A stretch of 64,000 bases of DNA from Heterodontus francisci. Its lineage: Eukaryota. The stretch lies in the NCBI RefSeq assembly GCF_036365525.1, contig NW_027140800.1, positions 1,178,001-1,242,000 of the forward strand, written 5' to 3'. Below, piece by piece: positions 1 through 64,000 of this stretch (position 1 is the first letter of the stretch; each line of letters begins with the position of its first letter). The notes under the pieces were generated by a model. The model did not search any database, was not told the DNA's origin, and saw only the letters and a list, made by a program, of their open reading frames with translations. The position numbers were made by a program, and so were the translations under genes.

Positions 1-27214
<27,214 letters not shown>

Positions 27215-27544
27215 GGCCTTTCATTGCAGCAGCTTTTTCGGGAGCAGAGAGTGAGCTAGTGAGCAGCTGGGAAGCTCAGTTTGAAAGTAAATTTAATTTC
27301 CTTTTGTTTTTCGGCGGAGGCCAGGGGGCTGCTGGGTAAGTAAAACACTATATATTTGGGCGGTTTCTGAACCCGAGACACCACATTTGTCGTGTCTCCC
27401 ACCCGCCCTCCTCCTCTAACCAAAAAAAAAGGACTCGGTGGGGTGTTTATAAGGTAAGGCTTTTTCGATTTCTCTGGTTTTATTGTGATTGGTAAAAACT
27501 TTTCGTTCCTTTTTCATTTAACTAAGTTAAGCTTAAGATTAAAA
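27215..27544 (+). promoter_or_regulatory. CR1 5' UTR / putative internal Pol II promoter
   Basis: Non-satellite sequence upstream of the ORF1 ATG, with GC boxes (GGGCGG ~27358, CCCGCCC ~27402) and ATTGG ~27488. Promoter function is inferred from general LINE biology. Confidence 0.5.
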
Positions 27545-28492
27545 ATGGCAGGAGATCTCAGACCCGTGTCATGCTCCTCTTGCTCAATGTGGGAGCTCAG
27601 GGACACGGCTGATGTCCCTGACTCCTTCACGTGCAGTAAGTGTGTCCAGCTGCAGCTCTTGTTAGACCGCATGACGGCTCTCGAGCTGCGGATGGACTCA
27701 CTTTGGAGCATGCGCGATGCTGAGGAGGTCGTGGATTGCACGTTTAGTGAATTGGTCACACCGCAGATTAGGATTGCTGAGGGAGAAAGGGAATGGGTGA
27801 CCAAAAGGCAGAGAAAGAGCAGGAAGGCAGCGCAGGAGTCCCCTGCGGTCTTCTCCCTCCAAAACAAGTATACCGTTTTGGATACTGTTGGGGGAGATGG
27901 CTCACCAGGGGAAGGCAGCAGTAGCCAGGTCCATGGCACCGTGGCTGGCTCTGCTGTTCAGTAGGGCGGGAAAAAGAGTGGAAGGGCTATAGTCGTAGGG
28001 GATTCTTTTGTAAGGGGAGTAGATAGGCGGTTCTGTGGTCGAAAACGAGGCTCCCGAATGGTATGTTGCCTCCCAGGTGCACGGGTCAGGGATGTCTCAG
28101 ATCGGCTGCAGAACATTCTAAAGGGGGAGGGTGAACAGCCAGTTGTCATTGTGCACATAGGCACTAATGATATAGGTAAAAAACGGGATGAGGTCCTACA
28201 AGCAGAGTTTAGGGAGTTAGGAGCCAAGTTAAAAAGTAGGACCTCAGAGGTAGTAATCTCAGGATTACTACCAGTGCCACGTGATAGTCAGAGTAAAAAT
28301 GAAAGAATAGTCAGGATGAATGCGTGGCTTGAGAGATGGTGCAGGAAGGAGGGGTTCAGATTTTTGGGACATTGGGACCGGTTCTGGGGGAGGTGGGACT
28401 ATTACAAATTGGACGGTCTACACCTGGGCCGGACTGGAACCAATGTCCTTGGAGGTGCTTTTGCTAACGCTGTTGGGGAGGGTTTAAACTAA
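27545..28492 (+). pseudogene. CR1 ORF1 (Cys4 zinc finger/leucine zipper + SGNH/GDSL esterase), one in-frame stop
   Basis: MAGDLRPVSCSSC..CSKC followed by a Leu-rich coil LQLLLDRMTALELRMDSL. After TAG at 27962-27964 the same frame continues AIVVGDS...LPGA...HIGTND...DGLHL (SGNH blocks) to TAA at 28490-28492. Confidence 0.92.
28483..28489 (+). promoter_or_regulatory. Candidate -1 ribosomal frameshift heptamer T_TTA_AAC at the ORF1/ORF2 junction
   Basis: ORF1 ends GGT TTA AAC TAA. The -1 frame TTT AAA CTA ATG TGG is ORF2. The motif fits X_XXY_YYZ; its function is inferred. Confidence 0.5.
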
Positions 28493-31446
28493 TGTGGCAG
28501 GGGGATGGGAACCAATTGAGGTCAGTTGACAGTAAGGAGTTAGTAACAAAAGCTTGTAAGGAACTAGATAATGAAGTCAGTGTGACTAAGGGGAAGAACA
28601 GGCAGGGAGCAGATGATGAATATAAAGGGACTGGTGGTCTGAGGTGCATTTGTTTTAATGCAAGAAGTGTAGTAGGTAAGGTAGATGAACTTAGGGCTTG
28701 GATTAGTACCTGGGAGTATGATGTTATTGCTATTACTGAGACTTGGTTGAGGGAAGGGCATGATTGGCAACTAAATATCCCAGGATATCGATGCTTCAGG
28801 CGGGATAGAGAGGGAGGTAAAAGGGGTGGAGGAGTTGCATTACTGGTCAAAGAGGATATCACAGCTGTGCTGAAGGAGGGCACTATGGAGGACTCGAGCA
28901 GTGAGGCAATATGGACAGAACTCAGAAATAGGAAGGGTGCGGTAACAATGTTAGGGCTGTACTACAGGCCTCCCAACAGCGAGCGTGAGATAGAGGTACA
29001 AATATGTAAACAGATTATGGAAAGATGTAGGAGCAACAGGGTGGTGGTGATAGGAGATTTTAATTTTCCCAACATTGACTGGGATTCGCTTAGTGTTAGA
29101 GGTCCAGGTGGAGCAGAATTTGTAAGGAGCATCCAGGAAGGTTTTCTAGAGCAGTATGTAAATAGTCCAACTCGGGAAGGGGCCATACTAGACCTGGTGT
29201 TGGGGAATGAGCCCGGCCAGGCTGTTGAAGTTTCAGTAGGGGACTACTTTGAGAATAGTGATCACAATTCCGTAAGCTTTAAAATACTCATGGACAAAGA
29301 CGAGAGTGGTCCTAAAGGAAGAGTGCTAATTTGGGGGAAGGCCAACTATACCAAAATTCGGCAGGAGCTGGGAAATGTAGATTGGGAGCAGCTGTTTGAA
29401 GGTAAATCCACATGTGATATGTGGGAGGCTTTTAAAGAGAGGTTGATTAGCGTTCAGGAGAGACATGTTCCTGTGAAAATGAGGGATAAAAATGGCAAGA
29501 TTAGGGAACCATGGATGACAGGTGAAATTGTGAGACTAGCTAAGAGGAAAAAGGAAGCATACATAAGGTGTAGGCGGCTGATGAAAGACGAAGCTTTGAA
29601 AGAATATCGGGAATGTAGGACCAATCTGAAACGAGGAATTAAGAGGGCTAAAAGGGGTCATGAAATATCTTTAGCAAACAGGGTTAAGGAAAATCCCAAA
29701 GCCTTTTATTCATATATAAGGAGAAAGAGGGTAACTAGAGAAAGGATTGGCCCACTAAAGGACAAAGGAGGAATGTTATGCTTGGACTCAGAGAAAATGG
29801 GTGAGATTCTAAACGAGTACTTTGCATCGGTATTCACCGAGGAGAGGGACATGACGGATGTTGAGGTTAGGAACAGATGTTTGATTACTCTAGGTCAAGT
29901 CGGCATAAGGAGGGAGGAAGTGTTGGGTATTCTAAAGGGCATTAAGGTGGACAAGTCCCCAGGTCCGGATGGGATCTATCCCAGGTTACTGAGGGAAGCG
30001 AGAGAGGAAATAGCTGGGGCCTTAACAGATATCTTTGCAGCATCCTTAAACATGGGTGAGGTCCCGGAGGACTGGAGAATTGCTAATGTTGTCCCCTTGT
30101 TTAAGAAGGGTAGCAGGGATAATCCACGTAATTATAGACCGGTGAGCCTGACGTCAGTGGTAGGGAAGCTGCTGGAGAAGATACTGAGGGATAGGATCTA
30201 TTCCCATTTGGAAGAAAATGGGCTCATCAGTGATAGGCAACATGGTTTTGTGCAGGGAAGGTCATGTCTTACCAACTTAATAGAATTCTTTGAGGAAGTG
30301 ACAACGTTGATTGATGAGGGAAGGGCTGTCGATGTCATATACATGGACTTCAGTAAGGCGTTTGATAAGGTTCCCCATGGCAGGCTGATGGAGAAAGTGA
30401 AGGCGCTTGGGGTCCAAGGTGTACTAGCTAGATGGATAAAGAACTGGCTGGGCAACAGGAGACAGAGAGTAGCAGTAGAAGGGAGTTTCTCAAAATGGAG
30501 ACGTGTGACCAGTGGTGTTCCACAGGGATCCGTGCTGGGACCACTGTTGTTTGTGATATACATTAATGATTTGGAGGAAAGTATAGGTGGACTGATTAGC
30601 AAGTTTGCAGACGACACTAATATTGGTGGAGTAGCAGATCGTGAAGGGGACTGTCAGAGAATACAGCAGAATGTAGATAGATTAGAGAGTTGGGCAGAGA
30701 AATGGTAGATGGAGTTCAATCAGGGCAAATGCGAGGTGATGCATTTTGGAAGATCCAATTCAAGAGTGAACTATACAGTAAATGGAAAAGTCCTGGGGAA
30801 AATTGATGTCCAGAGAGATTTGGGTGTTCAGGTCCACTGTTCCCTGAAGGTGGCAACGCAGGTAAATAGAGTGGTCAAGAAGGCATACGGCATGCTTTCC
30901 TTCATCGGACGGGGCATTGAGTACAAGAGTTGGCAGGTCATGTTACAGTTGTATAGGACTTTGGTTCGGCCACATTTGGAATACTGCGTACAGTTCTGGT
31001 CGCCACATTATCAAAAGGATGTGGATGCTTTGGAGAGGGTGCAGAGGAGGTTCACCAGGATGTTGCCTGGTATGGAGGGCGCTAGCTATGAAGAGAGGTT
31101 GAGCAGATTAGGATTATTTTCATTAGAAAGACGGAGGTTGAGGGGGGACCTGATTGAGGTGTACAAAATCATGAGAGGTATAGACAGAGTGGACAGCAAG
31201 AGGATTTTTCCCAGAGAGGGGGTTTCAATTACTAGAGGACACGAGTTCAAAGTGAAAGGGGAAATGTTTAGGGGGGATATGCGTGGAAGGTTCTTTACGC
31301 AGAGGGTGGTGGGCACCTGGAACGCGTTGCCAGCGGAGGTGGTAGACGCGGGCACGATGGAGTCTTTTAAGATGTATCTAGACAGATACATGAATGGGCA
31401 GGAAGAAAAGAGATACAGAACCTTAGAAAATAGGCGACATGTTTAG
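28492..31446 (+). pseudogene. CR1 ORF2 (AP-like endonuclease + reverse transcriptase), one in-frame stop
   Basis: Endonuclease motifs FNARS, ITETW, GDFN, LDL, SDH; RT motifs NYRPVSLTS, DFSKAFD, GVPQGSVLGP, FADD; CR1-type C-terminus RPHLEYC..WSP. TAG at 30706-30708 replaces Gln (KW*MEFN versus RWQMEFN in the other copies). Confidence 0.95.
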
Positions 31447-31458
31447 AGAGAGGATCTG

Positions 31459-31528
31459 GATCGGCGCAGGCTTGGAGGGCCGAAGGGCCTGTTCCTGTGC
31501 TGTAATTATCTTTGTTCTTTGTTCTTTG
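31459..31528 (+). other. CR1 3' UTR conserved stem-loop and (TCTTTGT)3 tail
   Basis: GATCGGCGCA...GGCC-GAAG-GGCC hairpin (31478-31489), shared with the other two elements; 7-bp tail repeats at 31509-31528. Confidence 0.8.
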
Positions 31529-33683
31529 AGATTCACTCAGTTATCCTGCCTGCTGCTACATCAGTGAGTTCACACTGGGGAGAGACGGTTCATCTGCTCA
31601 GAGTGTCGGAAGAGATTCACTCAGTCATTCTACCTTTTGATGCACCAGTGAGTTCACACTGGCGAGAGACCAGTCAGCTGCTCAGAGTGTGGGATGAGAT
31701 TCACTCAGTCATCCTGTCTGCTGATACACCAGTGTGTTCACACTTGGCAGAGTCCGTTCACCTGTTCACAGGGTGGGATTTGATTCACTCAGTCATCCTA
31801 CCTGCTGATACACCAGTGAGTTCACACAGGGGAGAGACCGTTCACCTGCTCGGAGTGATGGATGAGATTCACTCAGTCATTCTACCTGCTGATACACCAG
31901 TGAGTTCACAATGGGGAGAGACTTTTCACCTGCTCAGAGTGTGGACAGAGATTCACTTAGTCATCCTACCTGCTGATACACCACTGAGTTAACACTGGGG
32001 AGAGACCGTTCACCTTTTCAGAGTGTCGGAAAAGATTCACTCAGTCATCCTGCCTTCTGATACACCAGTGAGTTCACACTGGGGAGAGACAATTGACCTG
32101 CTCAGAGTCTGGTAGGAAATTCACTCAGTCATCCTATCTGCTGAAACAACAGTGAGTTCACAATGGGGAGAGACCATTCACCTGCTCAGAATGTGGGAAT
32201 AGATTCACTCAGTCATCCAACCTGCTGATATACCAGTACTTCACTTTGGGGAGAGACCGTTCACCTTTCAGAGTGTCGGAAAAGATTCACTCAGTCATCC
32301 TGCCTTCTGATACACCAGTGAGTTCACACTGGGGAGAGTCCATTCAGCTGCTCAGAGTGTGGGATGAGATTCACTCAGTCATCCTGCCTGCTGAAACACC
32401 AGTCAATTCACACATGGGAGAGACCGTTCACCTGTTCAGAGTGTGGGACGGGATTCACTCTGTCATCCTACCTGCTGATACACCAGTGAGTTCACACAGG
32501 TGAGAGACCTTTCACCTGCTCAGAGTTTTGGATGAGATTCACTCAGTCATCCTACCTGCTGATACACCAGTGAGTTCACACTGGGGAGAGACCATTCAGC
32601 AGCTCAGAGTCAGTTTGGAGATTCACTCAGTCATCCTGCCTGCTGTTACACCATTGAGTTCACAAAAGGGGAGAGACCATTCACCTGCTCAGAGTGTGGG
32701 AAGAGATTCACTCAGTCATCATAACTGCTGATACAACAGTGATTTGACAATGGGGACAGACCGTTCACGAGCTCAGAGTGTGGGCAAGAGATTCACTCTG
32801 TCATCCTACCTGCTGATACACCAGTGAGTTGACACTGGGGAGAGAGAGTTCACCTACTCTGAGTGTGGACAGAGATTCACTCAGTCATCCGACCAGCTGA
32901 TACACCAGTGAGTTATCACTGGGGAGAGACCGTTCAACTGCTCAGAGTGTCGGAAGAGATTCACTCAGTCATCCTACCTTCTGAGACACCAGTGAGTTCA
33001 CACTGGGGAGAGACCATTCACCTTTTCAGAGTGTGGAAGGGATTCACTCAATCATCCTACCTGCTGACAAACCAGTGAGTTCATACTGGGGAGAGACCGT
33101 TCACCTGCTCCAAGTGTGGGAAGAGATTCACTCAGTCATCCTACCTGCAGATATACATGTGATTTCACATTGGGGAGAGACCGTTCACCAGCTCAGTGTT
33201 CGGGAAGAGGTTCACTCAGTCATCCTACCTGCTGATACACCAGTGCGTTCACACTGGGGAGAGACGATACCCCTATCAGACTGTTGGAAAGGATTTACTC
33301 AGTCATCCTACCTGCTGATACACCAGTGAGTTCACACTGGGGAGAGAAGATTCACCTGCTCAGAGTCAGGTAGTAGATTCACTCAGTCATCCTAACTGCT
33401 GATACAACAGTGATTTGACAATGGGGACATACCGTTCACCTGCTCAGAGTGTGGGAAGAGATTCACTCAGTCATCCAACCTGCTGATATACCAGTGAGTT
33501 CACACTGGGGAGAGACCGTTCACCTCCACAGAGAGTCGGAAGAGATTCACTCAGCCATCCTACCTTCTGATACACCAGTGAGTTCACACCGGGGGGAGAC
33601 CATTCAGCTGCTCAGAGTGTGGGATGAGATTCACTCAGTCATCCTGCCTGCTGATACACCAGTGAGTTCACACTTGGGAGAGA
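31529..33683 (+). repeat. ZNF-derived 84-bp satellite, segment 2
   Basis: Same monomer, lying between the first and second LINE insertions. Confidence 0.97.
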
Positions 33684-35714
33684 GTATGTACCTGTCAGGC
33701 AGGGAGGAAGTTGTCGAGCGAGGGAGCCGTGGTTTACTCAAGAAGTTGAAGCGCTTGTCAAGAGGAAGAGGGCGGCTTATGTTAGGATGAGACGTGAAGG
33801 CTCAGTTAGGGCGCTTGAGAGTTACAAGCTAGCCAGGAAGGATCTAAAGGGAGGGCTAAGAAGAGCAAGGAGAGGACACGAGAAGTCATTGGCGGATAGG
33901 ATCAAAGAAAACCCTAAGGCTTTCTATAGGTATATCAGGAATAAACGAATGATAAGAGTTAGAACAGGGCCAATCAAGGATAGTAGTGGGAAGTTGTGTG
34001 CGGAATCAGAGGAGATAGGGGAAGCGTTAAATGAATATTTTTCGTCAGTATTTACAGTAGAGAAAGAAAATGTTGCCGAGGAGATTACTGAGATACAGCC
34101 TACTAGGCTAGATGGGATTGAGATTCACAAGGAGGAGGTGTTAGCAATTTTGGAAAGAGTGAAAATAGATAAGTCCCCTGGGCCAGATGGGATTTATCCT
34201 AGGATTCTCTGGGAAGCCAGGGAGGAGATTGCAGAGCCGTTGTTGTTGATCTTTAAGTCGTCATTGTCGACAGGAGTAGTGCCGGAGGACTGGAGGATAG
34301 CAAATGTTGTCCCCTTGTTCAAGAAGGGGAGTAGAGACAGCCCTGGTAATTATAGACCTGTGAGCCTTACCTCGGTTGTGGGTAAAATGTTGGAAAAGGT
34401 TATAAGAGACAGGATTTATAATCATCTTGAAAAGAATAAGTTCATTTGCGATAGTCAGCACGGTTTTGTGAAAGGTAGGTCGTGCCTCACAAACCTTATT
34501 GAGTTTTTCGAGAAGGTGACCAAACAGGTGGATGAGGGTAAAGCCGTGGATGTGGTGTATATGGATTTCAGTAAGGCGTTTGATAAGGTTCCCCACGGTA
34601 GGCGATTGCAGAAAATACGCAAGTATGGGGTTGAAGGTGATTTAGAGCTTTGGATCAGAAATTGGCTAGCTGAAAGAAGACAGAGGGTGGTGGTTGATGG
34701 CAAATGTTCATCCTGGAGTTTAGTTACTAGTGGTGTACCGCAAGGTTCTGTTTTGGGGCCACTGCTGTTTGTCATTTTTATAAACGACCTGGATGAGGGT
34801 GTAGAAGGGTGGGTTAGTAAATTTGCGGATGACACGAAGGTCGGTGGAGTTGTGGATAGTGTCGAAGGGTGTTGTAGGGTACAGAGGGACATAGATAGGC
34901 TGCAGAGCTGGGCTGAGAGATGGCAAATGGAGTTTAATGCGGAGAAGTGTGAGGTGATTCACTTTGGAAGGAGTAACAGCAATGCAGAGTACTGGGCTAA
35001 TGGGAAGATTCTTGGTAGTGTAGATGAGCAGAGAGATCTTGGTATCCAGGTACATGAATCCCTGAAAGTTGCTACCCAGGTTAATAGGGCTGTTAAGAAG
35101 GCATATGGTGTGTTAGCCTTTATTAGTAGGGGGATCGAGTTTCGGAGCCACGGGGTCATGATGCAGCTGTACAAAACTCTGGTGAGGCCGCACCTGGAGT
35201 ATTGCGTGCAATTCTGGTCACCGCATTATAGGAAGGATGTCGAAGCTTTGGAAAGGGTGCAGAGGAGATTTACTAGGATGTTGCCTGGTATGGAAGGAAG
35301 GTCTTACGAGGAAAGGCTGAGGGACTTGGGGTTGTTTTCGTTAGAGAGAAGGAGGAGGAGAGGTGACTTAATAGAGACATACAAGATAATCAGAGGGTTA
35401 GATAGGGTGGATAGTGAGAGTCTTTTTCCTCGGATGAGGATGGCAAACACGAGGGGACATAGCTTTAAGTTGAGGGGTGAAAGATATAGGACAGATGTCA
35501 GAGGTAGTTTCTTGACGCAGAGAGTAGTAGGGGCGTGGAACGCCCTGCCTGCAACAGTAGTAGACTCGCCAACTTTAAGGGCATTTAAGTGGTCATTGGA
35601 TAGACATATGGATGTAAATGGAATAGTGTAGGTCAGATGATCGGCGCAACATCGAGGGCCGAAGGGCCTGTACTGCGCTGTAATATTCTAATTCTAATTC
35701 TAATTCTAATTCTA
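33684..35714 (+). mobile_element. CR1-clade LINE, 5'-truncated, subfamily B (copy 1)
   Basis: Starts in mid-ORF2 (YVPVRQGG). Has the 3' hairpin at 35657-35668 and an (ATTCTA)5 tail at 35685-35714. Colinear with 61279-63303 at offset 27595. Confidence 0.95.
33685..35631 (+). pseudogene. Uninterrupted but 5'-truncated CR1 ORF2 (RT domain, no endonuclease)
   Basis: Open frame with NYRPVSLTS, DFSKAFD, GVPQGSVLGP, FADDTK, RPHLEYC. The endonuclease domain was lost by truncation. Confidence 0.9.
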
Positions 35715-38700
35715 ATTCACTTATTCAGAGTGTGGGAAGGGATTCACACAATCATCCTACCTGCTGTTACACCAGTGAGTTCATACTGGGGCGAGACCGT
35801 TCACCTGCTCATAGTGTGGGAAGAGATTCACTCAGTCGTCCTACCTTCTGGTATATCAGTGATTTCACATTGGGGAGAGACCGTTCACCAGCTCAGTGTA
35901 CGGGAAGAGGTTCACTCAATCTTCCTACCTGCTGATACACCAGTGAGTTCACACTGGGGAGATACCATTCACCTGCTCAGAGTCTGGTAGGAGATTCACT
36001 CAGAAATCCTACCCGCTGTAACAACAGTGAGTTCACAATGGGGAGAGACCATTCACCTGCTCAGAGTCTGGTAGGAGATTCACTCAGACATCCAACTTGC
36101 TGATACACCAGTGAGTTCACACTGGGGAGAGACCGTTCACCTGCTCAGAGTGTTGGATGAGATTCACTCAGTCATCCTGCCTGCTGTTGTAAAAGTGAGT
36201 TCACACTGGGGAGAGACCATTCACCTGCTCAGAGTCTGGTAGGAGATACAGTCAGTCATTCTACCTGCTGAATCAACAATGAGTTCACAATGGGGAGAGA
36301 CCATTCACCTGCTCAGAGTGTGGGAATAGAATCACTCAGTCATCCTGACTGCTGATACAACAGTGAGTTGACAATGGGGACAGACCGTTCACCTGCTCAG
36401 AGTGTGGGAAGTGATTCACTCAGTCATCCAACCTGCTGATATACCAGTGAGTTTACACTGGGGAGAGACCGTTCAACTCATCAGAGTGTCGGAAGAGATT
36501 CACTCAGTCACCTTACCTTCTGATACACCAGTGAGTTCACACTTGGGAGAGACCGTTCACCTGTTCAGAGTGTGGGAAGGGATTCACTCAGTCATCCTAC
36601 CTGCTGATACACCAGTGAGTTCACACTGGGAAGAGACCAGTCCCCTCTCAGAGTGTAGGAAAGGATTTACTCAGTCATCCTACCTGCTGATACAACAGTG
36701 AGTTCACACTGGGGACAGACCATTCACGTGCTCAGAGTCTGGTTGGAGATTCACTCAGACATCCTACCTGCTGAAACTAAAGTGAGTTCACAATGGGGAG
36801 AGACCATTCATCTGCTCAGAGTGTTGGAAGTGATTCACTGAGTCATCCAACCTGCTGATACACCAGTGAGTTCACACTGGGGAGAGACCGTTCACCCGCT
36901 CAGAGTGTCGGAAGAGATTCACTCAGTCATCCTCCCCTCTGATACACCAGTGAGTTCACACTGGGGAAAGACCATTCAACTGCTCAGACTGTGGGATGAG
37001 ATTCACTCAGTCATCCTACCCGCTGATACACCAGTGAGTTATCACTGGGGAGAGACCGTTAACCTTTTCAGAGTGTGGGTGGGATTCACTCAGTCATCCT
37101 ACCTGTTGATACACCAGTGAGTTCACACTGGGGAGAGACCGTTCACCCGCTCAGTGTGTCGGAAGAGATGCACTCAGTCATCCTCCCCTCTGATACACCA
37201 GTGAGTTCACACTGGGGAGAGACCATTCACCTGCTCAGAGTGTGGGAAGAGAATCACTCAGTCATCCTGACTGCTGATACAACAGTGTGTTGACAATGGG
37301 GACAGACCGTTCATCTGCTCAGAGTGTGCGAAGACATTCACTCAGTCATCCAACCTGCTGATATACCAGTGAGTTTACACTGGGGAGAGACCGTTTACCT
37401 CATCAGACTGTCGGAAGAGATTCAATCAGTCATCCTACCTTCTGATACACCAGTGATTTCACGCTGGGGAGAGACCATTCAGCTGCTCAGAGTATGGGAT
37501 GAGATTCACTCAGTCATCCTCCCCTCTGATACACCAGTGAGTTCACACTGGGGAGAGACCATTCAACTGCTCAGACTGTGGGATGAGATTCACTCAGTCT
37601 TCCAAACTGCTGATACACTAGTGAGTTCACACTGGGGAGAGACCTTTCACCTGCTCTGATTGTGGGAAAGAGATTCACTCTGTCATCCTACCTACTGATA
37701 AACCAGTGAGTTAACACTGGGGAGAGACCGTTCACCTGCTCAGAGTGTGGACGGAGATTCACTCAGTCATCCTACCCGCTGATACACCAGTGAGTTATCA
37801 CTGGGGAGAGACCGTTCACCTTTTCAGAGTGTGGGTGGTATTCACTCAGTCATCCTACCTGTTGATACACCAGTGAGTTCACACTGGGGAGAGACCGTTC
37901 ACCCGCTCAGAGTGTCGGAAGAGATGCACTCAGTCATCCTCCCCTCTGATACACCAGTGAGTTCACACTGGGGAGAGACCATTCACCTGCTCAGAGTGTG
38001 GGAAGAGAATCACTCAGTCATCCTGACTGCTGATACAACAGTGAGTTGACAATGGGGACAGACCGTTCATCTGCTCAGAGTGTGGGAAGAGATTCACTCA
38101 GTCATCCAACCTGCTGATATACCAGTGAGTTTACACTGGGGAGAGACCGTTCACCTCGTCAGACTGTCGGAAGAGATTCAATCAGTCATCCTACCTGCTG
38201 ATACACCAGTGAGTTCACACTGGAGAGAGACCGATCACCTGCTCTGAGTGTGGAAGGGATTCACTCAGTCATCCTGCCTGCTGAGATACCAGTGAGTTCA
38301 CACTTGGGAGAGACCGTTCACCTATTCAGAGTGTGGGAAGGGATTCACTCAGTCATCCTACCTGCTGATACACCAGTGAGTTCACACTGGGAAGAGACCG
38401 ATCACCTGCTCTGAGTGTGGAAGGGATTCACTCAGTCATCCTGCCTGCTGAGATACCAGAGAGTTCACACTGGGGAGAGACCGATCACCTGCTCAGAGTG
38501 TGGAAGGGATTCACTAAGTCATTCTACCTGCTGATACACCAGTGGGTTCACACTGGGAAGAGACCAGTCCGCTCTCAGAGTGTAGGGAAGTAATTACTCA
38601 GTCATCCTACCTGCTGATACAACAGTGAGTTCACACTGGGGAGAGACCATTCACGTGCTCAGAGTCTGGTTGGAGATTCACTCAGACATCCTACCTGCTG

Positions 38701-60050: not shown

Positions 60051-60135
60051 ACCATTCACCTGCTCAGAGTGTGTGATGAGATTCACTCAGTCATGCTGCT
60101 TGCTGATACACCAGTGAGTTCACACTGGGGAGATA

Positions 60136-60342
60136 GCGAAGAGAGGAATAGGGAGAGAGAGGAGTTGAACACGTGGCTGCAGGGATGGAGTAGGAGGGAG
60201 GGTTTTGGTTTCCTGGATAATTGGGGCTCTTTCTGGGGTAGGTGGGACCTCTACAAACAGGATGGTCTTCACCTGAACCAGAGGGGTACCAATATCCTGG
60301 GGGGGGAGATTTGTTAGTGCTCTTCGGGGGGGTTTAAACTAA
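60136..60342 (+). pseudogene. CR1 ORF1 C-terminal fragment (SGNH esterase end)
   Basis: LNTWLQGWSRREGFGFLDNWGSFWGRWDLYKQDGLHL is homologous to element A ORF1. There is one extra G in the G8 run at 60299-60306; removing it gives ...GGRFVSALRGGLN* ending at 60342. Confidence 0.85.
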
Positions 60343-63226
60343 ATCAGCAGGGGAATGGGAACCTAAATTGCAGTGCCAGTGTACAGGCTGTTGAGAGTAG
60401 TGAGGTAGGGGATAAGGTTACAGGGACGCAAGAGGGCACTGGCAAGCAAGAACTTGGTTTAAAGTGTGTCTACTTCAACGCCAGGAGCATCCGGAATAAG
60501 GTGGGTGAGCTTGCAGCATGGGTTGGTACCTGGGATCCTGATGTTGTGGCCATTTCGGAGACATGGGTAGAGCAGGGGCAGGAATGGATGTTGCAGGTTC
60601 CGGGATTTAGATGTTTCAGAAAGAACAGAGAAGAGGGTAAAAGAGGGGGGAGGGTGTGGCATTGTTAATCAAGGAAAGTATTACAGCGGCAGAAAGGACG
60701 TTTGAGGACTCGTCTACTGAGGTAGTATGGGCCAAGGTTAGAAACAGGAGAGGAGAGGTCACCCTGTTGGGAGTTTTCTATAGACCTCCGAATAGTTCCA
60801 GAGATGTAGAGGAAAGGATAGCGAAGATGATTCTCGACAGGAGCGAGAGTAACAGGGTAGTGGTTATGGGGGACTTTAACTTTCCAAATATTGACTGGAA
60901 ATACTATAGTTCGAGTACTTTAGATGGGTCTGTTTTTGTCCAGTGTGTGCAGGAGGGTTTTCTGACACAGTATGTGGACAGGCCAACCAGGGGCGATGCC
61001 ACATTGGATTTGGTACTGGGTAATGAACCCGGCCAGGTGTTCGATTTAGATGTAGGTGAGCACTTTGGCGATAGTGATCACAATTCGGTTAGGTTTACCT
61101 TAGCGATGGGCAGGGACAGGTATATACCACAGGGCAAGAATTATAGCTGGGGGAAAGGAAATTATGACGCGATTAGGCAAGATTTAGGATGTGTAGGATG
61201 GGGAAGGAAACTGCAGGGGATGGGCACAAACGAAATGTGGAGCTTATTCAAGGAGCAGCTAATGCGTGTCCTTGATAAGTATGTACCTGTCAGGCAGGGA
61301 GGAAGTTGTCGAGCAAGGGAGCCGTGGTTTACTCAAGAAGTTGAAGCGCTTGTCAAGAGGAAGAGGGCGGCTTATGTTAGGATGAGACGTGAAGGCTCAG
61401 TTAGGGCGCTTGAGAGTTACAAGCTAGCCAGGAAGGATCTAAAGGGAGGGCTAAGAAGAGCAAGGAGAGGACACGAGAAGTCATTGGCGGATAGGATCAA
61501 AGAAAACCCTAAGGCTTTCTATAGGTATATCAGGAATAAACGAATGATAAGAGTTAGAACAGGGCCAATCAAGGATAGTAGTGGGAAGTTGTGTGCGGAA
61601 TCAGAGGAGATAGGGGAAGCGTTAAATGAATATTTTTCGTCAGTATTTACAGTAGAGAAAGAAAATGTTGCCGAGGAGATTACTGAGATACAGCCTACTA
61701 GGCTAGATGGGATTGAGATTCACAAGGAGGAGGTGTTAGCAATTTTGGAAAGAGTGAAAATAGATAAGTCCCCTGGGCCAGATGGGATTTATCCTAGGAT
61801 TCTCTGGGAAGCCAGGGAGGAGATTGCAGAGCCGTTGTTGTTGATCTTTAAGTCGTCATTGTCGACAGGAGTAGTGCCGGAGGACTGGAGGATAGCAAAT
61901 GTTGTCCCCTTGTTCAAGAAGGGGAGTAGAGACAGCCCTGGTAATTATAGACCTGTGAGCCTTACTTCGGTTGTGGGTAAAATGTTGGAAAAGGTTATAA
62001 GAGACAGGATTTATAATCATCTTGAAAAGAATAAGTTCATTTGCGATAGTCAGCACGGTTTTGTGAAAGGTAGGTCGTGCCTCACAAACCTTATTGAGTT
62101 TTTCGAGAAGGTGACCAAACAGGTGGATGAGGGTAAAGCCGTGGATGTGGTGTATATGGATTTCAGTAAGGCGTTTGATAAGGTTCCCCACGGTAGGCTA
62201 TTGCAGAAAATACGCAAGTATGGGGTTGAAGGTGATTTAGAGCTTTGGATCAGAAATTGGCTAGCTGAAAGAAGACAGAGGGTGGTGGTTGATGGCAAAT
62301 GTTCATCCTGGAGTTTAGTTACTAGTGGTGTACCGCAAGGTTCTGTTTTGGGGCCACTGCTGTTTGTCATTTTTATAAACGACCTGGATGAGGGTGTAGA
62401 AGGGTGGGTTAGTAAATTTGCGGATGACACGAAGGTCGGTGGAGTTGTGGATAGTGTCGAAGGGTGTTGTAGGGTACAGAGGGACATAGATAGGCTGCAG
62501 AGCTGGGCTGAGAGATGGCAAATGGAGTTTAATGCGGAGAAGTGTGAGGTGATTCACTTTGGAAGGAGTAACAGCAATGCAGAGTACTGGGCTAATGGGA
62601 AGATTCTTGGTAGTGTAGATGAGCAGAGAGATCTTGGTATCCAGGTACATAAATCCCTGAAAGTTGCTACCCAGGTTAATAGGGCTGTTAAGAAGGCATA
62701 TGGTGTGTTAGCCTTTATTAGTAGGGGGATCGAGTTTCAGAGCCACGGGGTCATGATGCAGCTGTACAAAACTCTGGTGAGGCCGCACCTGGAGTATTGC
62801 GTGCAGTTCTGGTCACCGCATTATAGGAAGGATGTCGAAGCTTTGGAAAGGGTGCAGAGGAGATTTACTAGGATGTTGCCTGGTATGGAAGGAAGGTCTT
62901 ACGAGGAAAGGCTGAGGGACTTGGGGTTGTTTTCGTTAGAGAGAAGGAGGAGGAGAGGTGACTTAATAGAGACATACAAGATAATCAGAGGGTTAGATAG
63001 GGTGGATAGTGAGAGTCTTTTTCCTCGGATGAGGATGGCAAACACGAGGGGACATAGCTTTAAGTTGAGGGGTGAAAGATATCGGACAGATGTCAGAGGT
63101 AGTTTCTTTACACAGAGAGTAGTAGGGGCGTGGAACGCCCTGCCTGCAACAGTAGTAGACTCGCCAACTTTAAGGGCATTTAAGTGGTCATTGGATAGAC
63201 ATATGGATGTAAATGGAATAGTGTAG
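60333..63226 (+). pseudogene. CR1 ORF2 (endonuclease + RT), intact except for a frameshift in G-runs at ~60645-60654
   Basis: The frame from 60333 encodes LKCVYFNARS..ISETW..PGFRCFRKNREEGKR. Two extra G then shift the reading to the 856-aa frame (VALL...GDFN...SDH...FADDTK...NGIV*). Confidence 0.9.
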
Positions 63227-63303
63227 GTCAGATGATCGGCGCAACATCGAGGGCCGAAGGGCCTGTACTGCGCTATAATATTCTAATTCTAATTCTAATT
63301 CTA

Positions 63304-64000
<697 letters not shown>

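Follow-up and report, generated by a model that had tools for sequence, protein, structure and literature searches.

A predicted programmed -1 frameshift site at the ORF1/ORF2 junction of CR1 retrotransposons

In most vertebrates, CR1 elements dominate among the retrotransposons (PMC13343379, partial text), and how the second open reading frame (ORF2) of a long interspersed element (LINE) is translated is a standing question (PMC3894237, partial text). For the Dictyostelium elements TRE5-A and TRE3-A, a review states that ORF2 expression depends on a -1 frameshift (PMC5911963, partial text), and +1 shifting or read-through has been suggested for Paramecium LINEs (PMC5405496, partial text); frameshifting in a LINE is therefore not new in kind. 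Like CR1, TRE5-A and TRE3-A are LINEs without long terminal repeats (non-LTR) of the apurinic/apyrimidinic endonuclease (APE) type, with an ORF1 followed by an ORF2 for APE and reverse transcriptase (RT), but they differ in clade, host, and ORF1, and it is CR1 that shows exchange between heptamers. Here we describe the CR1 junction in a 64,000-nucleotide stretch of Heterodontus francisci DNA (contig NW_027140800.1, positions 1,178,001 to 1,242,000; the window), where U_UUA_AAC at the end of ORF1 is predicted, with a probability that we put at about 85%, to be a programmed -1 frameshift site giving rise to an ORF1-ORF2 fusion.

The coronavirus ORF1a/1b junction (U_UUA_AAC in infectious bronchitis virus, IBV) and the retroviral gag-pol junctions share with CR1 the heptamers, their register, the -1 overlap, and the order of a structural protein 5' and a polymerase 3'; the HIV-1 type heptamer is U_UUU_UUA. 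CR1 differs from these viral sites in that it is non-LTR, in that its Pfam matches include no protease domain, and in that the stop codon abuts the site. A frameshifting review counts both U_UUA_AAC and G_GGA_AAC with the sites at which mammalian ribosomes shift most readily (PMC5009743, partial text). A literature search found no paper on frameshifting at the CR1 junction, although an earlier remark is possible in older CR1 descriptions (1997, 2001; Kapitonov and Jurka 2003; Kojima 2005); the word "frameshift" is absent from the main text of PMC4120745, PMC13343379, PMC4316615, and PMC3905857, and "CR1" is absent from 300,000 of the 449,034 characters of the frameshifting review PMC5009743. 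The CR1 junction is probably a programmed -1 frameshift site, a variant form of a known mechanism in a major vertebrate LINE group. The features on which the prediction is built are directly observed: the register, the -1 overlap, an open ORF2 frame in which no ATG is conserved, the fixation of synonymous codons, and heptamer exchange across families.

The CR1 junction and its conservation

ORF1 of the near-full-length element in the window (copy A) ends GGT TTA AAC TAA (28481-28492), with TTTAAAC (28483..28489, plus strand) in the X_XXY_YYZ register; one nucleotide back, the same letters read TTT AAA CTA ATG TGG, which is the frame of ORF2. A preliminary description of this DNA had proposed that a -1 slip at this point enters ORF2, and the register and the translation bear it out. 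It had also pointed to an identical junction and a common G-rich tract in a divergent subfamily, and both are there: the same 12 letters, GGTTTAAACTAA, recur in copy B at 60331-60342 (heptamer and TAA at 60333..60342, plus strand), and CAGGGG..ATGGGAACC lies downstream of the junction in both copies. TTTAAAC has two matches on the plus strand of the window, both at CR1 junctions, and two of its three minus-strand matches are the same junctions, because GTTTAAAC is a palindrome. The last stop codon in the ORF2 frame of copy A (TAA, 28465..28467, plus strand) stands five codons 5' of the heptamer; therefore, ORF2 cannot begin farther upstream. The ORF1 stop of copy A overlaps an ATG in the ORF2 frame (28490..28494, plus strand; ATG at 28492-28494). 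Copy B reads TAAATC at this place, has no overlapping ATG, and has its first ORF2-frame ATG at codon 86 (60588), past the endonuclease motifs YFNARS and SETW.

Distant relatives were found via the start of the endonuclease, by pattern or alignment, with a query from which the heptamer was absent. We fetched 38 metagenome loci (of an estimated ~600), and genome contigs contributed a further 24 and 30; the CR1-like loci on genome contigs are probably host DNA within bacterial assemblies. In 31 distinct loci, an upstream match to the esterase hidden Markov model (HMM) was present, and these are the basis of the locus count below. The 39 curated copies, in 19 families, consist of these 31, the two window copies, and six recognized by their tail (L035, L038, L058, L063, L085, and L090), which have no esterase HMM match and stand outside the locus count. 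L075 was dropped as a duplicate of L027, and other endonuclease-positive loci were excluded as truncated before ORF1, as having a different ORF1 type, or as having none that was readable. Loci with RALN tails are called amniote-type because a named lizard ORF1 ends in R-A-L-N. Esterase-based protein and alignment scans, which covered viral contigs and genome contigs, gave no CR1 junctions; one of them gave 10 loci, and the three inspected held no endonuclease. Endonuclease scans of viral contigs had no matches.

A canonical heptamer (T_TTA_AAC or T_TTT_TTA) stands in register at the end of ORF1 in 29 of the 31 HMM-positive loci; of the other two, L047, whose frame is broken, reads TTTACGA, and L099 reads TTTAAAG. 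In the ORF bodies of these elements in-register canonical heptamers occupy 39 of 7001 codon positions (0.56%). By family, T_TTA_AAC directly followed by the stop occurs in 10, T_TTT_TTA in eight (in seven of them with one further codon before the stop), and a degraded form in one. Free synonymous variation, which the preliminary description had named as the observation that would speak against a frameshift, was not found: the Leu codon is TTA and the preceding base T in 19/19 families each, and the Asn codon is AAC in 10/10, against backgrounds of 0.16, 0.36, and 0.33, respectively, in 1988 codons from the same ORF1s. The earlier claim concerned Gly-Leu-Asn as a whole; it stands for the Leu and Asn codons, whereas of the Gly only the third base, T, is conserved. 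A change of AAC to AAT alters no residue in either frame, CTA and TTA both encoding Leu, and the constraint therefore acts on the RNA. Internal Leu-Asn pairs are never encoded by T_TTA_AAC (0/45), and internal Phe-Leu pairs lie on a heptamer in 3/22 cases. The heptamer is conserved beyond protein need. Among control loci with a non-esterase ORF1, 9 of 10 (two of them nearly identical) have no in-register heptamer in the open linker.

ORF2 lies in a constant -1 phase in 32/39 copies, the remaining seven having broken frames; in 31/39, no stop interrupts the -1 frame between the heptamer and the endonuclease. In the 17 families with an intact linker, the linkers comprise 1139 codons with no stop in the ORF2 frame, whereas the other two frames contain 92 and 200 stops; the ORF2 frame opens only 1 to 16 codons upstream of the heptamer. 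No ATG precedes the endonuclease in 11 of these 17 families. One locus, L133, is intact: its ORF1 is open for 365 codons and its ORF2 for 962 codons from the heptamer, with the first Met at codon 59, past the NARS motif. Natural proteins joining esterase, endonuclease, and RT in a single ORF (617-2000 amino acids) were represented among 8000 scored candidates by one unrelated gene model only, which is weak evidence. P0039, in which ORF1 runs into ORF2 in frame, was rejected as a natural fusion, since it probably reflects one damaged copy or one gene model only.

Contigs from three DNA runs of shark-like genomes (three organisms) and from one RNA run were aligned to 28150-28800. The bin at 28480-28501 was the deepest of 30 in all three DNA runs (1.46 million versus 0.79 and 0.56 million in the flanking bins, 251 thousand versus 52 and 86, and 415 thousand versus 87 and 147), where depth is not copy number and one run, X1, may stem from the source organism itself. 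Loose contig ends accumulate directly 3' of 28513, where related copies diverge. The depth peak and the loose ends together mark the junction as the part most widely shared among divergent subfamilies. Among the variants listed, the only one in 28469-28515 is 28494 G>T, which destroys the ATG of copy A and makes up 41%, 59%, and 71% of the depth in the three DNA runs.

At the protein level, Leu and Asn are invariant in 33/33 aligned ORF1s. Among 213 related proteins, 148 had a readable esterase C terminus (76 after dereplication); 94 of the 148 end in x-L-N, where x is a residue without a T-ending codon (E, Q, K, M, or W) in 1/94, compared with 18% nearby. Another 11 end in x-G-N, with Q as x in 9/11, which fits the prediction because G_GGA_AAC requires a preceding codon ending in G. 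After dereplication, the counts of such residues are 0/30 for x-L-N and 7/8 for x-G-N (Fisher p 6e-7, from protein only). In the predicted structure, the confidently modelled fold does not include G-L-N (173-175; pLDDT <50), a weak sign that the esterase fold does not need its last three residues.

Proposed mechanism and alternative explanations

We propose that a minority of ribosomes would slip by -1 at U_UUA_AAC and make an ORF1-endonuclease-RT fusion as a minor product, while the remainder would terminate at the UAA next to it, with ORF1p as the main product. Slippage would be in tandem, by tRNA-Leu and tRNA-Asn, and the fusion would carry the 0-frame residues through G-L-N and then L-M-W-Q-G (copy A) or L-N-Q-Q-G (copy B) from the -1 frame. 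ORF1p would be in excess over the fusion, as Gag is over Gag-Pol, and RT might be brought into the ORF1p particle in cis.

The window copies have only the adjacent stop and the G-rich block (28497..28513 on the plus strand of copy A), the latter being the candidate stimulator. Counted from the heptamer, this block has a G at +8 and a G-run at +11 to +15; a protein might bind it, or its pairing partner might be the hairpin of the 3' untranslated region (UTR). In the 11 TTTA families, G occupies +8 in 10 and each of +11 to +14 in nine. Protein-stimulated viral frameshifts have a spacing of 11 to 14 nucleotides to the stimulator (PMC5009743, partial text), which the CR1 G-run matches; the likeness to arterivirus and cardiovirus frameshifting is in this spacing only, as the CR1 motif is G-rich and its protein partner hypothetical. 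Pairing of the G-tract with the element's own 3' UTR ranked 1, 4, and 6 of ~79 sites for copy A (three query lengths), 2 to 4 of ~73 for L133, and 16 to 26 of ~78 for copy B; copies A and B use the same register, and cognate pairs were no better than non-cognate ones. A G-quadruplex was rejected as a general explanation, there being too few G-runs in copy B and family F07. In L035, a hairpin follows the heptamer after 8 nucleotides.

Several points weigh against a frameshift. In L1, synthesis of ORF2p does not depend on its AUG (PMC5009743, partial text), and a missing AUG alone is therefore no proof of frameshifting; in 6 of the 17 families, moreover, an ATG does occur somewhere in the linker. 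The 19 families are not independent, falling into ~11 deep lineages, although the codon-fixation result stands at that number. The tree behind this figure was built from the endonucleases of the fetched loci only, with no reference elements; it groups F07 with F08 and F13 to F15 with F19, and most of its inner branches are weak. Its change counts were set aside because the label "noEst" covered a duplicate together with truncated copies. None of the variants listed for the sequencing runs lies inside the heptamer, but minor ones may occur there. Of the 76 dereplicated proteins, 38 end in neither L-N nor G-N and are not judgeable from protein; the dereplicated internal x-L-N control (9/97) does not differ clearly from 0/30, and the G-N group is known from protein only, no DNA having been found for it. 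A bare heptamer usually shifts poorly. In the window copies, folding with ViennaRNA, in which pseudoknots were not modelled, gave no local hairpin 5 to 9 nucleotides downstream of the heptamer better than in shuffles (z of +0.64 and +1.29 for copy A, +1.11 and +0.11 for copy B); in this they differ from the coronavirus and retrovirus sites, and the earlier remark that no convincing structure lies downstream holds for them, with every z-score positive. Four related T_TTT_TTA families do have an 8-bp hairpin after 11 nucleotides, with 32/32 cells paired and two compensatory changes, but this covariation comes from four related sequences and 30/500 shuffles scored as high.

One alternative is AUG-independent termination-reinitiation, as has been proposed for L1, with ribosomes restarting near the ORF1 stop at a non-AUG codon in the -1 frame and the conserved letters serving termination or restart. 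The position of the stop, directly after the heptamer or one codon later in 17/19 families, suits this explanation, an open linker is expected under it too, and the AUG independence of L1 ORF2 is its precedent; the preliminary description had called the L1 case reinitiation, whereas PMC5009743 (partial text) describes an AUG-independent initiation of unknown type. We nevertheless consider it unlikely, since it predicts neither an X_XXY_YYZ motif in slippage register, nor the swap between T_TTA_AAC and T_TTT_TTA and the residue pattern before L-N and G-N, nor the constant -1 phase. A more specific form of restart, the coupling of stop and start at UAAUG that yields separate ORF2p in SART1 (PMC3894237, partial text), has its counterpart in TAATG at 28490-28494 of copy A, in the ORF2 frame, as had been pointed out before. 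The overlap itself is real, but it is present in 1 of the 39 junctions, copy A alone, it shows no conservation across CR1 copies or across families and is missing from copy B, and the G of its ATG reads T in much of the depth of the three DNA runs; SART1 also needs a downstream structure (PMC3894237, partial text), and none folds in the window copies. Such coupling is highly improbable as the general route to ORF2, although UAAUG restart could add output in subfamilies that have the ATG.

The conserved letters might instead be another RNA or DNA signal, such as a splice acceptor, an internal promoter, or a packaging or RT signal, with ORF2 expressed from a separate transcript. The G that follows T_TTT_TTA in 7/8 families resembles a 3' splice site, and the G-tract of copy A is able to pair with the 3' UTR. 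The shark-type junction, however, has TAA and no AG at this place, L049 is without the G, and no joint was among those listed at 28150-28800 in the RNA run, from which only 73 reads aligned; register and phase, moreover, are properties specific to ribosomes, and we regard this explanation as very unlikely. That the esterase simply requires a C-terminal Leu-Asn is hardly credible: the invariance of the two residues agrees with it, but the synonymous codons are fixed as well, eight families end in F-L-x, and the tail is of low confidence in the predicted structure. A -1 frameshift at the heptamer is the explanation that we prefer.

We also consider, tentatively and with more doubt than belief, a wider proposal: that all LINEs of the CR1 group with an esterase ORF1, whether from sharks, amniotes, or of invertebrate type, might make RT as a Gag-Pol-like fusion by -1 frameshifting, and that the vertebrate lineage might stimulate it with the conserved G-tract, through a protein bound to the tract or through pairing of the tract with the 3'-terminal hairpin ~3 kb away, so that only full-length RNA would yield RT.

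The CR1 copies of the window and related observations

The window holds three LINE copies, all on the plus strand and all damaged or truncated, which interrupt an 84-bp satellite. Copy A occupies 27215..31527, as delimited by the satellite, which ends at 27214 and resumes at 31528, and by its ORFs and Pfam matches; it is inactivated by premature TAG codons at 27962-27964 (ORF1) and 30706-30708 (ORF2). Its ORF1 (27545..28492, plus strand, from the ATG at 27545) encodes an N-terminal Cys-rich region and an SGNH/GDSL esterase (PF13472, Lipase_GDSL_2, E 4.8e-14; predicted structure confident, pLDDT 90.7) and ends in G-L-N-stop. Its relatives are 72 to 74% identical, and the closest named ones come from sharks and rays, one of them from a sawshark. 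ORF2, in the -1 frame (28483..31446, plus strand), comprises a 56-codon linker, the APE endonuclease (motif from 28651), and RT (PF03372, PF14529, and PF00078). The 3' UTR (31463..31527, plus strand) forms a hairpin (3' arm at 31488-31502) followed by a short tandem repeat tail, without poly(A), a CR1 feature described in PMC4316615 (partial text). Type IVB ORF1 of vertebrate CR1, subgroup CR1_7, combines a zinc finger/leucine zipper with an esterase (PMC4120745, partial text), and copy A has the same domain layout in both ORFs, the 3' hairpin, and the short repeat tail. In the L2 element ZfL2-1 of zebrafish, the esterase is a membrane-binding protein (PMC3905857, partial text).

Copy B (60134..63305, plus strand), of a divergent subfamily, is inactivated by a 5' truncation within ORF1 and by frame breaks, and the third copy (33684..35724, plus strand), whose 3' end is similar to that of copy B, is truncated within ORF2 and has no junction. 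A second canonical heptamer, G_GGT_TTA, overlaps the first one codon upstream on the plus strand (28480..28486 in copy A, 60330-60336 in copy B) and is not kept in more distant families. The palindrome GTTTAAAC was rejected as a kept element, as it is not conserved in amniote-type or other families. The satellite (4-27214, 31528-33683, 35725-60133, and 63306-64000) has more than 600 copies with ~83% matches, and a block of ~4950 bp within its region is present twice (39761 and 44711). Some satellite stretches are open for 150 to 230 codons; at a guess, the unit may go back to a repeated coding sequence, for example a zinc-finger array.

Several other LINE loci stood out in the sample. In L044, with a non-esterase ORF1, A_AAA_AAC stands in register 201 nucleotides before the endonuclease motif, and ORF2, which lacks an ATG, overlaps ORF1 in the -1 frame; frameshifting may extend beyond the esterase CR1s. 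A separate LINE group has a long esterase ORF1, a TAG, and then an in-frame ORF2 that stays open for 198 to 412 codons (TAG at L139:2410-2412, L146:2389-2391, L149:2250-2252, and L158:1806-1808 on the plus strand and at L143:1216-1218 and L154:1237-1239 on the minus strand). ORF1 ends in a Cys/His knuckle in 5/6 of these, and three share the same small GGCA/TGCC hairpin 6 nucleotides past the stop; the group is a candidate for stop-codon read-through, the other gag-pol strategy. In L060, L088, and L089, a non-esterase ORF1 is in frame with ORF2 behind TGA followed by CAA, and ATG is absent or occurs once, at the endonuclease motif; TGA-CAA is a leaky-stop context. The N-terminal region of L098 ORF2 contains a 2A-like motif, DVHPNPGP, 5' of the endonuclease, and 2A-like motifs have reportedly been noted in non-LTR elements. 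A bacterial assembly of 17.8 Mb (G001; L076-L101 and L103-L137) has more than 100 LINE RT matches, and a shark-like ORF1 (P0009) carries a bacterial name in its record; these records are contaminated with animal DNA.

Significance for CR1 biology

With a slippery site in a constant position, the translation of CR1 ORF2 becomes directly testable, and CR1 elements would offer many natural frameshift cassettes for vertebrate ribosomes. If the prediction is true, the annotation of CR1 ORF2 and the design of active CR1 constructs would change, since most families are without a usable AUG. CR1 would then produce an ORF1-ORF2 fusion protein at a set ratio of ORF1p to RT, with the RT tethered to the esterase.

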